From: Escherichia coli 042
Lineage (GTDB): Bacteria > Pseudomonadota > Gammaproteobacteria > Enterobacterales > Enterobacteriaceae
Reading direction: 5' to 3' (one strand)
Assembly (NCBI RefSeq): GCF_000027125.1
Contig: NC_017626.1
DNA: 64,000 bases
Positions 35,327 through 38,933 of this stretch are shown piece after piece. Position 1 is the stretch's first letter. Every line of letters begins with the position of its first letter. The notes under the pieces were generated by a model. That model saw nothing but the letters and a program-made list of their open reading frames with translations, ran no database searches and was not told the origin of the DNA. The position numbers were made by a program, and so were the translations under genes.

Positions 35327-35348
35327 TGATATGTAATTTCCCGCTTAT

Positions 35349-35402
35349 TCATTAATGATTAAACACATTACCTTTTGATTATTAATCAAAAACATTAATT
35401 TC
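35349..35402. promoter_or_regulatory. Palindromic AT-rich sites in the divergent AraC / transporter promoter region
   Basis: TCATTAATGA (35349-35358) and TTGATTA-T-TAATCAA (35376-35390) palindromes plus further ATTAAT repeats; seen directly. Confidence 0.4.
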
Positions 35403-35551
35403 ACCTGATCCAATTCACACTTTTAAATTCAGGTCGGAATCGTCACCTTTTTTTACTCTTTTCTCGCCTTGTTGATATTCCCGTTCACGGCAGAATTAAT
35501 CATGTCATTGCAATAAAACTAAAAATTGCACCCTATTCACGAGGAATATCT

Positions 35552-36952
35552 ATGACCTCTACACCGATTACTACCGCTGATATCGCTAAAGGTAAAATTG
35601 ACGATGCGTTATCTGTACGGGAAAAAATAGGCTACGGCCTGGGTGACGCAGGCGGCACCGTAATAACTTGCCTGATCATGAACTTTCTCACCTTTTTCTA
35701 CACCGACGTTTTTGGCTTAACTCCGGCGCTGGTCGGCACGCTGTTTATTGCACTGCGCGTGTTTGATGCCATCTCCGACCCGGTGATGGGCGTCATTGCC
35801 GACCGGACGCAAAGTCACTGGGGGCGCTTTCGTCCGTGGCAGTTATGGATTGCCATTCCCATCGGCATTATCGGCATCCTGACGTTCACCGTGCCAGATG
35901 CCAGCATGGGAGTAAAAATCGCCTGGGCGTTCGGCACTTACCTGCTCCTTTCAGTCGGTTATACCGCCATCAACGTGCCGTACTGCGCGCTGATCAACAC
36001 CATGACCACCCGCCACAATGAAGTGATCTCCTGCCAGTCCTGGCGATTCGTTCTCTGCGGTGTAGCGGGATTTCTGGTTTCGGTAGGCTTACCGTGGATG
36101 GTGGATCTCTTCGGTCAGGGTAATGCCGCGCGCGGCTATCAACTGGGCGTCGGCGTGCTGTGCGCCATCGCTGTGGTGATGTTCCTGTGCTGTTTCTTCT
36201 GGGTTCGTGAACGGGTACCACTCTCCACAATGGGGAAATTTACCCTGCGCGAACATCTTGCCGGGCTGCGAAACAACGACCAACTGCTGCTGATGCTGGT
36301 CATGTCTTTCCTGCTGATTAACGTCTTTAATATTCGCGGCGGTGGGTATATGTACTTCATTACCTACGTCTTACAAGGCAGTACGGGCTACACGTCGCTG
36401 TTCTTCACTATGGTCACCTTCGCCTCCATTATCGGCTCGGTGATTGTCAGCCCGTTAACGCGACGTTTCGATACCGTCAAAATTTATTACTACACCAACC
36501 TGCTCCTCGCTTCACTGGCGGTGTTGATGTGGTTCCTGCCCTCCGGCCCGGCTTATCAAACGCTGTGGCTGGCGGTGATCCTCGGTAATGGCGTGATTCT
36601 TGGCTTCACATTGCCACTGCACTTCTCATTGATGGCCTTTGCCGATGACTACGGCGAGTGGAAAACCCGCGTACGTTCTTCCGGCATGAACTTCGCCTTC
36701 AATCTGTTTTTCATCAAACTGGCCTGGGCCTCCAGCGCCGGGATCATCAGCCTGCTGTTTATTTTTGTCGCCTACCAGCCAGGCGTAGAAAACCAGACCG
36801 CCAGTTCGCTTGGCGGGATCGCGGCGATGGAAACATTGCTGCCTGCGCTGTTCCACCTGCTGCTGGCGATGGCGATCCGCTTTTGCAAACTCAATAACCC
36901 TATGATGTCACGCATTGCTAGCGACCTGCGTCAGCGTCATGTACAGCCTTAA
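35552..36952 (+). CDS. GPH-family (glycoside-pentoside-hexuronide) sugar:cation symporter
   Basis: 466 aa, 12-TM MFS-like; N-terminal GYGLGD...G and [18 protein letters not shown] motifs typical of MelB/YicJ/YihO-type GPH transporters. Confidence 0.85.
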
Positions 36953-36962
36953 GGAGCACAAG

Positions 36963-38933
36963 ATGAACATTTCGGAAGTCGATCTGCATAAACTGACGGT
37001 CAGCGATCCGTTCCTCGGTCAGTACCAACAACTGGTCCGCGACGTGGTGATTCCTTATCAGTGGGATGCCTTGAACGATCGTATCCCAGAAGCGGAACCC
37101 AGCCATGCGATTGAAAACTTTCGCATTGCCGCAGGACTGCAAGACGGTGAATTTTACGGGATGGTGTTTCAGGACAGCGACGTCGCCAAATGGCTGGAAG
37201 CGGTAGCCTGGTCGCTGTGCCAGAAGCCGGATGCCGAACTGGAAAAAACCGCTGACGAGGTAATCGAACTGGTCGCTTCCGCCCAGTGCGAAGATGGCTA
37301 TCTCAATACTTACTTTACGGTAAAAGCGCCCGAAGAACGCTGGAGCAATCTGGCGGAGTGTCATGAACTTTACTGCGCCGGTCATCTGATTGAAGCCGGA
37401 GTCGCCTTCTTCCAGGCCACGGGCAAGCGGCGCTTGCTGGAAGTGGTTTGCCGTCTGGCCGATCATATCGACAGCGTATTTGGTCCAGGTGAAAGTAAGT
37501 TACACGGTTATCCTGGTCACCCGGAAATTGAACTGGCACTAATGCGCCTGTATGAAGTGACCGAAGAGCCGCGCTACCTGGCGCTGGCGAACTATTTTGT
37601 CGAACAGCGTGGTGCGCAACCGCACTATTACGACCAGGAATATGAAAAGCGCGGGCAGACCTCGCACTGGCACACCTACGGCCCGGCGTGGATGGTGAAA
37701 GATAAAGCCTACAGCCAGGCGCATTTACCCATCGCACAGCAACAAACCGCCATCGGACATGCAGTACGCTTTGTATATCTGATGACTGGCGTCGCACATC
37801 TGGCGCGTTTAAGTCACGATGAAAGCAAGCGTCAGGATTGCCTGCGGCTGTGGAACAATATGGCCCAGCGTCAGTTATATATTACCGGCGGCATTGGCTC
37901 ACAAAGCAGCGGCGAAGCGTTCAGCAGCGATTACGATCTGCCGAATGACACGGTATACGCCGAAAGCTGTGCTTCCATCGGCCTGATGATGTTCGCCCGG
38001 CGAATGCTGGAAATGGAAGGCGACAGTCAATATGCCGATGTGATGGAGCGCGCACTGTACAACACCGTGCTCGGCGGCATGGCGCTGGATGGCAAACATT
38101 TCTTCTATGTGAATCCGCTGGAAGTGCATCCAAAAACGTTAAAATTCAACCATATCTACGATCACGTTAAGCCGATCCGCCAGCGTTGGTTTGGTTGCGC
38201 TTGTTGTCCGCCAAATATCGCCCGCGTGCTAACCTCGATTGGTCATTATCTCTACACGCCGCGTGAAGATGCGTTGTATATCAACATCTACGCAGGAAAC
38301 AGCATGGAAGTGCCGGTAGAAAATGGCACGCTGCGTCTGCGGGTTAGCGGAAACTATCCGTGGCAGGAGCAGGTGACGATTGCGGTTGAATCGCCCCAGC
38401 CGGTGCGTCATACGCTGGCTTTACGTCTGCCGGACTGGTGCACACAGCCGCAGATCATATTGAATGGGGAAGAGGTCGGGCAGGATATTCGTAAAGGGTA
38501 TTTGCACATTACCCGCGAATGGCAGGAGGGCGATACGCTGAATCTGACTTTGCCGATGCCGGTACGCCGCGTTTACGGTAACCCTCAGGTGCGTCACGTC
38601 GCCGGAAAAGTGGCGATTCAGCGCGGCCCGCTGGTGTATTGCCTGGAACAGGCCGACAACGGCGAGTCACTGCATAACCTGTGGCTGCCCGCCGATGCGC
38701 CATTTACGACATTTGAAGGCAAGGGATTGTTCCGCCATAAGATCTTAATCCAGGCTCCGGGTTACCGGTATGAACAGAGCAATCCAGAGCAGCAACCGCT
38801 GTGGCATTACGACAGCGCGCCAGCCAAACGCCAGCCGCAAACCCTGACCTTTATCCCGTGGTTTAGCTGGGCCAACCGGGGTGAAGGCGAAATGCGGATC
38901 TGGGTGAATGAGGAAAAGCATTGCCATCCGTAG
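36963..38933 (+). CDS. Glycoside hydrolase family 127 (DUF1680) protein, putative beta-L-arabinofuranosidase-like
   Basis: 656 aa from ATG 36963 with AAGGAG SD 7 bp upstream; Cys-rich segment WFGCACCPPNIARV resembles the recalled zinc/cysteine active-site region of HypBA1-type GH127 enzymes. Family assignment from memory. Confidence 0.7.
   Translation: MNISEVDLHKLTVSDPFLGQYQQLVRDVVIPYQWDALNDRIPEAEPSHAIENFRIAAGLQDGEFYGMVFQDSDVAKWLEAVAWSLCQKPDAELEKTADEVIELVASAQCEDGYLNTYFTVKAPEERWSNLAECHELYCAGHLIEAGVAFFQATGKRRLLEVVCRLADHIDSVFGPGESKLHGYPGHPEIELALMRLYEVTEEPRYLALANYFVEQRGAQPHYYDQEYEKRGQTSHWHTYGPAWMVKDKAYSQAHLPIAQQQTAIGHAVRFVYLMTGVAHLARLSHDESKRQDCLRLWNNMAQRQLYITGGIGSQSSGEAFSSDYDLPNDTVYAESCASIGLMMFARRMLEMEGDSQYADVMERALYNTVLGGMALDGKHFFYVNPLEVHPKTLKFNHIYDHVKPIRQRWFGCACCPPNIARVLTSIGHYLYTPREDALYINIYAGNSMEVPVENGTLRLRVSGNYPWQEQVTIAVESPQPVRHTLALRLPDWCTQPQIILNGEEVGQDIRKGYLHITREWQEGDTLNLTLPMPVRRVYGNPQVRHVAGKVAIQRGPLVYCLEQADNGESLHNLWLPADAPFTTFEGKGLFRHKILIQAPGYRYEQSNPEQQPLWHYDSAPAKRQPQTLTFIPWFSWANRGEGEMRIWVNEEKHCHP

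Follow-up and report, generated by a model that had tools for sequence, protein, structure and literature searches.

What do the ATTAAT-type palindromes and repeats that crowd the gap between an AraC-family regulator gene and a divergently oriented sugar-transporter gene of Escherichia coli 042 do? They lie in a stretch of 64,000 nucleotides of contig NC_017626.1 (RefSeq assembly GCF_000027125.1), called the window below, and the first-pass annotation had proposed them as binding sites for the adjacent AraC-family protein or for a global regulator. To answer the question, we consider in turn the genes that flank the gap, the chance statistics of the motifs, the conservation of the gap among orthologs, and the promoters and regulator sites that this conservation suggests.

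The gap was described as 225 bp long between the AraC-family gene and the GPH transporter gene, and it is exactly so (35327–35551; 32 per cent GC). Together with a GH127 glycoside hydrolase gene, on which the RefSeq annotation of E. coli agrees, the two genes form a cassette (Table 1). The regulator matches the Pfam families HTH_18 (2e-19), HTH_AraC and AraC_binding, that is, it combines a double helix-turn-helix with a sugar-binding (cupin) domain, which places it in the AraC family, and it also matches solved AraC-family DNA-binding domains. Among the NCBIfam models AraC itself comes nearest, but the score of 61 bits falls short of the cutoff of 208, and the protein is therefore not an AraC equivalog or ortholog; the NCBIfam model search returned no named regulator that is orthologous to it. 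A likely ligand of the regulator would be a beta-L-arabinofuranoside or its product.

In E. coli, the cassette is flanked by the yiaK-S operon (with sgbE, annotated as araD) on one side and by yiaT on the other, and is carried by 2312–2321 of 5426 complete genomes (about 43 per cent), O157:H7 included. In K-12 (strain RV308, locus L002, 3112–3405), only a 33-residue C-terminal piece of the regulator and a 63-residue internal piece of GH127 are left between sgbE and yiaT, which shows that the K-12 lineage lost the cassette by deletion. O157:H7 instead lacks the neighboring yiaK–sgbE operon and keeps a remnant of an IclR-family regulator gene. A survey of species-representative genomes found regulator orthologs in 80, at 58–93 per cent identity, and the half of the protein that binds DNA is highly conserved across genera; the divergent three-gene cassette is kept in about 78 species, in nearly all of which the gap measures 215–261 bp. 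A literature search found no paper on this locus, and because K-12 lacks the cassette, no regulon database covers it; the cassette is widespread and uncharacterised. The value of the present work is a testable map of the control region, with targets for mutation and footprinting and with bases that can be dispensed with. Should these genes indeed serve to take up and cleave plant beta-L-arabinofuranosides, the regulator would offer a ready-made sensor for those sugars.

Table 1. Features of the cassette and of its control region in the window, with conservation among the aligned gaps (mean majority fraction; the interval scored is given in brackets where it differs from the feature).
Feature	Position	Strand	Mean majority fraction	Remark
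AraC-family regulator gene, 271 aa	34511–35326	−		Open reading frame; AraC-type ligand-binding domain and two helix-turn-helix motifs
Candidate ribosome-binding site of the regulator, GCGGGAA	35339–35344	−		Putative; conserved TTCCCGC island about 11 nt upstream of the start codon
TCATTAATGA palindrome	35349–35358		0.47 (35346–35372)	Unconserved; within the predicted 5' untranslated region of the regulator
19-bp palindrome TTTTGATTA-T-TAATCAAAA	35373–35391			P = 0.006 in shuffles; symmetry not kept
Core TGATTATTAA, proposed −10 region of the regulator	35376–35385	−	0.84	Putative function; AATAAT on the minus strand runs from 35383 to 35378
CATTAAT	35393–35399		0.44 (35392–35403)	Unconserved; inside a fixed-length neutral spacer
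Distal element (C/G)GATC-N4-TCACA-N-TTT	35404–35423		0.83 (35406–35423)	Candidate; half CRP-like (centre 35411.5) or upstream regulator site
45-bp block CAGGTCGGAATCGTCAyCTTTTTATACTTTTCCCTTCCCTTGTTG	35430–35474	+	0.90	Proposed binding region of the regulator; runs into the −35
Proposed −35 of the transporter, TTGTTG	35469–35474	+		CTTGTTG identical in 67/77 orthologs
Spacer	35475–35489		0.51	
Proposed −10 of the transporter, CAGAAT (CAAAAT in some species)	35491–35496	+	0.83 (GCAGAAT to GT, 35490–35505)	GCAGAAT or GCAAAAT in 71/77 orthologs
Fourth ATTAAT copy	35495–35500	+		Overlaps the end of the proposed −10 and the discriminator; inside GCAGAATwAAT (35490–35500)
Invariant GT	35504–35505	+		2.4 and 1.7 bits; at or next to the predicted transporter start (about 35503–35504)
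Ribosome-binding site of the transporter, GAGGA	35541–35545	+		Conserved CGAGGAGT 6–8 nt before the ATG
GPH-family (MFS_2) sugar:cation symporter gene	35552–36952	+		Open reading frame; TIGR00792 at 331 bits against a cutoff of 231
GH127 glycoside hydrolase gene (beta-L-arabinofuranosidase family)	36963–38933	+		Three of three GH127 Pfam domains

The strings themselves are as described, apart from one coordinate. TCATTAATGA is present at 35349–35358 as a perfect 10-bp palindrome, and CATTAAT and AATTAAT occur at 35393–35399 and 35494–35500; the second string, TTGATTATTAATCAA, is also present but lies one base to the left of the position first given, at 35375–35389, and extends to a perfect palindrome of 19 bp, whose arm of nine reaches P = 0.006 in shuffled sequences. 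ATTAAT occurs four times in the gap against 0.38 expected (none of 5000 dinucleotide-preserving shuffles reaches four), but this hexamer was chosen post hoc, and the probability that any hexamer reaches four copies in the shuffles is 0.12. Three copies are found in each of three other AT-rich 225-bp stretches of the window. The gap further holds ATTAATCA twice (at 35381 and 35495) and an imperfect direct repeat of 23 nt, TTCATTAATGATTAAACACATTA and TTGATTATTAATCAAAAACATTA (35348–35370 and 35375–35397; 78 per cent identity, spacing 27, P of about 0.003–0.015), and its first part, 35327–35403, has 22 per cent GC against 51 per cent for the window. The direct repeat is specific to E. coli; counted by hand, E. 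whittamii matches at only 13 of 22 positions. Since the gap has not grown longer, the repeat did not arise as a simple duplication of the insertion type. The motif pattern is thus real and mildly non-random in E. coli, and as a pattern it is unconserved.

How little of it is shared emerges from an alignment of the window with 77 orthologous gaps from other Enterobacterales (78 sequences in all). As a neutral yardstick we used the four-fold degenerate codon sites of the flanking genes, at which the mean majority fraction is 0.60; at codon positions 1 and 2 of the same genes it is 0.86–0.94. Neither TCATTAATGA, in which E. whittamii already differs, nor CATTAAT is identical in a single one of the 77 orthologs, and only two conserved blocks bear ATTAAT, in two different contexts: the core TGATTATT(AA) and the GCAGAATwAAT that holds the fourth copy. 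At the fourth-copy site, ATTAAT itself is found in 17/77 and ATAAAT in 26/77, A35498 being well conserved. The strongest conservation begins only at the right edge of 35349–35402, from 35407 onward. On this comparison, the two ATTAAT copies in the 35349–35358 region and at 35393–35399 are unconserved, lineage-specific AT-rich filler.

These results bear directly on whether the palindromes and repeats (35349–35402 and 35492–35504) are what the adjacent AraC-family regulator recognizes. Direct repeats are common among the sites of AraC-family proteins, and the reading would account for a motif frequency above that of shuffles in E. coli, for the 23-nt direct repeats 27 bp apart and for the doubled ATTAATCA. 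However, for two of the four copies there is no conserved counterpart in any of the 77 orthologs, and they lie at or below the neutral level, although the DNA-binding region of the protein is conserved across genera, and the direct repeat is absent even from E. whittamii. A far better conserved block of 45 bp sits just upstream of, and touches, the proposed −35 of the transporter, which is the usual position of an AraC-type activator. We therefore consider it very unlikely that the ATTAAT strings are the regulator's sites.

A milder proposal, compatible with the explanation that we prefer below, is that the AT-rich, TpA-rich stretch 35327–35403 is bound by nucleoid proteins of the H-NS, Fis or IHF type, or is curved, and silences or modulates the cassette. 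Its GC content relative to the window, the variable presence of the cassette in E. coli, the mildly non-random repeats and the invariance of the stretch in six divergent E. coli alleles would all fit. Yet these alleles are too similar to one another for invariance to imply selection, and all orthologous gaps are AT-rich (33–47 per cent GC) without these motifs, as generic promoter DNA is. The proposal is therefore doubtful.

The one conserved element within the palindromic stretch is asymmetric. The 19-bp palindrome is identical in 2/77 orthologs and the 15-bp TTGATTATTAATCAA in 9/77, and TGATTATT in 62/77. A perfect palindrome (7/7 arm positions) is found in 10 of the 73 sequences scored, the window included; arm symmetry averages 4.5 of 7 positions, three of which follow automatically from the conserved core, and of the 66 sequences that bear the motif, 16 keep the G35377/C35387 pair. 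Read on the minus strand, the core resembles a −10 element of the regulator gene. In the 66 motif-bearing sequences, −12 is A in 63, −11 A, −10 T and −9 A are universal, and −8 is A in 64, positions −7 to −5 being fixed by the way in which these sequences were selected. Species that deviate from the core retain a −10-like hexamer in place (GATAAT in Mixta, GATATT in Trabulsiella). Minus-strand −14 T, −6 C and −5 A are conserved as well, which is more than a simple −10 would require and would suit a protein site too. Twelve of the 78 sequences, from distant genera, are without TGATTATT. Most of these gaps have AGTGTAGA exactly 32 nt upstream of the regulator start codon (TTG in several); it is shared by L049, L064, L067, L068, L070–L072 and L080 (Buttiauxella, Cedecea, Atlantibacter and one C. 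freundii strain), which suggests that the regulator promoter may have been relocated in this clade.

Could the core TGATTATTAA, with or without its palindromic extension, be a protein operator rather than a −10, serving either autoregulation, as at araO1, or a second, dimeric regulator that overlaps the promoter of the regulator gene? Conservation over 11 bp (minus strand TTAATAATCAA), including −14, −6 and −5, is wider than a −10 hexamer, the phasing to the main block is a strict 56 bp, A35388, which mirrors T35376, is retained in 59/66, and the perfect 19-bp palindrome (P = 0.006) is found in Escherichia and C. amalonaticus. Nevertheless, only 16/66 sequences retain the symmetric counterpart of the invariant G35377; selection therefore does not maintain a site of two-fold symmetry. 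The species with deviant cores retain exactly the bases that are critical in a −10. By comparison and by inspection, no clear resemblance was seen between the core, in either orientation, and the 45-bp block. The palindrome of E. coli does contain the arms TTGAT and ATCAA (35375–35389), as in the FNR operator TTGAT-N4-ATCAA, but the spacer is of 5 nt and thus wrong for FNR, and the right arm is unconserved across orthologs; we rejected FNR. An operator at the core is accordingly possible, though we think it unlikely. The palindromic look of 35373–35391 is, as far as the alignment can tell, an elaboration of the Escherichia/Citrobacter lineage around a conserved asymmetric core, with no detectable selection on symmetry.

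Beyond the right edge of the motif stretch lies the distal element, in which GATC is found in 76/77 and TCACA in 77/77 orthologous gaps, the TCACA half and its TT flank being invariant. CRP recognizes a 22-bp site with the core TGTGA-N6-TCACA and may be centred at −41.5 or at −61.5, −71.5, −82.5 or −92.5. The distal element matches the CRP core with two mismatches, which is at chance level (34 such sites in the window against 25 expected). Its left half is CCTGA in E. coli (3/5 of TGTGA) and mostly CCCGA or CTCGA elsewhere; left-half position 6 is C or G in 72/78 sequences and T in 3/78, position 5 is G in 5/78, and no drift toward TGTGA in the left half was seen across the 78 sequences. The position of the element is close to what CRP would need, with its centre about −40.5 from the predicted start of the regulator and about −91.5 from that of the transporter, at most 1 bp off the allowed positions. 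GATC is invariant beyond the requirements of CRP, and we make the assignment to CRP only weakly; from its sequence, the element could be bound by CRP through its one consensus half or, equally, be a further site of the regulator.

Two other places in the window deserve mention. Between 53047 and 53223, four sites near-perfectly match the CRP consensus (TGTGATTCAGATCACA, TGTGACATCACTCACA, TGTGATGAGCATCACG and TGTGACTGATATCACA) upstream of a 637-aa open reading frame on the plus strand (53367–55280), whose size and map position would fit mtlA; the mtlA promoter carries multiple CRP sites. On the minus strand, at 60760–61938, a 392-aa open reading frame contains repeats with a period of 234 bp (GCAGGGAATCGTCA at 61419, 61653 and 61887), which suggests that its product may be a repeat-domain protein.

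The longest conserved element is the 45-bp block. AraC/XylS-type sites typically comprise two half-sites of roughly 17–21 bp, direct or inverted, set some two helical turns apart, the proximal one overlapping the −35. Its top internal conserved repeat is weak, with copies 21 bp apart (35441/35462); after column shuffling, P = 0.048 for offsets of 20–22 and 0.42 for any offset, so that, once the T/C-rich composition is controlled, tandem AraC-type half-sites are not significantly indicated in the block. Inspection revealed no open reading frame or leader peptide across it, and a search of the gap against Rfam at a permissive E-value gave a single match at chance level (E = 4.6; 13 bits against a gathering threshold of 50). 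A regulon search for further copies of the block motif in the window and in the ortholog loci found one place only, internal to the GH127 coding sequence and on the opposite strand: copies of AGGTCGGAATCG with one or two mismatches, AGATCGTAATCG in the window (37928, minus strand) and AGGTCGTAATCG in the orthologs (L007, L009, L018, L036, L038, L061 and L064, at about 1360–1390). This is probably a coincidence of coding conservation. For Fur, ArcA, IHF, NarL and Cra, an informal comparison with their known sites gave no convincing fit.

Between 35200 and 35700, consensus scans detected no terminator and no sigma-70 promoter at threshold (9/12 consensus matches). A weight-matrix scan of the 78 sequences, with a matrix of our own built from hexamer frequencies, gave TTGTTG-16-CAGAAT as the most recurrent plus-strand call (41/78 sequences), with a weak score, and listed the minus-strand AATAAT among the top three in 19/78 sequences, again as weak candidates. 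The absence of any promoter at the consensus threshold is as expected if the promoters depend on activators.

Other promoter calls were considered as well. An alternative candidate combines a −35 TTCACA with a −10 at 35438. The sequence TATACT (35452–35457), present in most genera, was rejected as the transporter's −10: it is TTTACT in E. coli, C. amalonaticus, C. sedlakii and S. diarizonae, which thus lack the essential A, and it would also leave the upstream elements at non-standard positions. The lack of conservation at 35424–35429 ruled out a −10 at about 35424 for a minus-strand promoter, and a misfit in spacing, seen on inspection, ruled out a sigma-54 promoter (GG-N10-GC) at 35489. In the predicted 5' leader of the transporter, many genera have a GC-rich hairpin, CCCGC-N4-7-GCGGG, followed by a T/A-rich run, at a place that corresponds to the window after 35523 (Klebsiella, Raoultella, the Citrobacter freundii group, Pantoea and Kosakonia; for example L044, L048, L053, L056, L063 and L069); E. 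coli is without it. The hairpin could be an attenuator or a stabiliser.

The distances between the elements are rigid. The distance from TGATTATT to GGTCGG is 56 bp in 60 species (measured to GGTCGGAAT, in 60 of the 62 in which the core aligns), from TCACA to GGTCGG 17 bp in 73, from GGTCGG to CCTTGTTG 35 bp in 70, and from CCTTGTTG to GCAGAAT 23 bp in 66. At the ends of the gap, TGATTATT lies 49 ± 1 nt from the start codon of the regulator, whereas between 57 and 99 nt separate GCAGAAT from the ATG of the transporter. The functional part, some 130 bp of rigidly spaced elements (35376–35506), is common to most Enterobacteriaceae and some Erwiniaceae, and fixed spacing across drifting sequence is the signature of promoter hexamers and activator sites that face RNA polymerase.

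We favor, with a probability of roughly 55 per cent, the reading that the gap is a compact divergent promoter region with two weak, activator-dependent promoters, each promoter, start and binding assignment being a prediction from conservation and spacing. On the minus strand, TGATTATT(AA) would supply the −10 of the regulator (AATAAT), with a start at about 35369–35371 and a leader of some 45 nt. An activator-type site would be formed by the distal element, at about −41 from this start and about −92 from that of the transporter. The 45-bp block would be the main site of the AraC-family protein, at about −73 to −29, abutting the weak −35 TTGTTG, which a neutral 16-nt spacer would separate from the weak −10 CAGAAT and a transporter start at about 35503–35504. 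The high conservation of the regulator's DNA-binding half is in keeping with an invariant site. Of the ATTAAT copies, one would then fall in the regulator's leader, one in the spacer between its −10 and the activator site, one over its −10, and one over the −10 and discriminator of the transporter. The earlier proposal of a site for the AraC protein or a global regulator thus holds insofar as the gap is a divergent control region with strongly conserved cis-elements, but the ATTAAT motifs do not act as recurring copies of one recognition sequence; the most promising positions for the regulator's site (35430–35474) and for that of a global regulator (35404–35423) lie almost wholly outside the interval 35349–35402 to which attention had been drawn.

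A more elaborate possibility starts from the same conservation. Because GATC is invariant in 76/77 and the left flank avoids the CRP consensus, the near-invariant 35404–35506 could be a Dam-methylation-sensitive or otherwise unusual multi-site operator for a sensor of beta-L-arabinofuranosides, joined in Escherichia by a 19-bp operator over the regulator's −10 for a second dimeric regulator. We regard this as highly improbable.

Published expression data bear on the two promoters. In O157:H7 Sakai, where the gap lies at about 4,488,850–4,489,075, the regulator corresponds to ECs4457, and ECs4458, as the next gene, to the transporter; ECs4458 is annotated as a putative permease (PMC2241611 supplement). 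In a time course in glucose minimal medium, ECs4458 rose from 4.6 h to 5 h (FDR p = 0.001) and ECs4457 fell over the same step (p = 0.006; PMC2241611 supplement). In our reading, the culture leaves exponential growth at this step. Relief of catabolite repression fits the rise of ECs4458, and the fall of ECs4457 argues against activation of the regulator's promoter by CRP. In EDL933, Z5000 ('putative regulatory protein') was reported to depend 48-fold on RpoS in LB cultures at early stationary phase (PMC2907692). Z5000 is probably ECs4457 and hence this regulator, to judge from its gene number, the identical wording of its annotation and its non-O-island status.

Among known systems, the closest likeness is to araC–araBAD. 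Here too a regulator gene diverges from the sugar operon that it presumably controls, a conserved block of about 40–45 bp lies upstream of, and runs into, a weak −35, and a TCACA element is found about 92 bp upstream of the predicted start, where araBAD has its CRP site at −93.5. The predicted divergent starts are about 132 bp apart, and those of ara about 150 bp. Unlike in ara, the regulator is no AraC ortholog and the distal element is without a CRP-like left half. AraC recognizes half-sites of the form TAGC-N7-TCCATA; none is found in the gap, nor does so short a gap hold a distal O2-like site.

The mel system offers a second likeness, as MelB is a GPH transporter like that of the cassette. 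CRP acts at the melR promoter as a class II activator from a site at −41.5, and the centre of the distal element is predicted at about −40.5 to −41.5 relative to the regulator start. In contrast to melR–melAB and rhaSR–rhaBAD, the site here is only half CRP-like and no MelR- or RhaS-like site sequences were recognized; moreover, the regulator mRNA falls between 4.6 h and 5 h in glucose minimal medium, against the prediction of CRP activation. The predicted positions of the distal element resemble those of CRP at araBAD or rhaBAD and at melR, and the 45-bp block, at about −73 to −29, would occupy the place of activators of the AraC, RhaS and MelR type. The proposed layout of this control region, an ordinary member of the AraC-type class of sugar promoters, parallels that of araBAD and rhaBAD.
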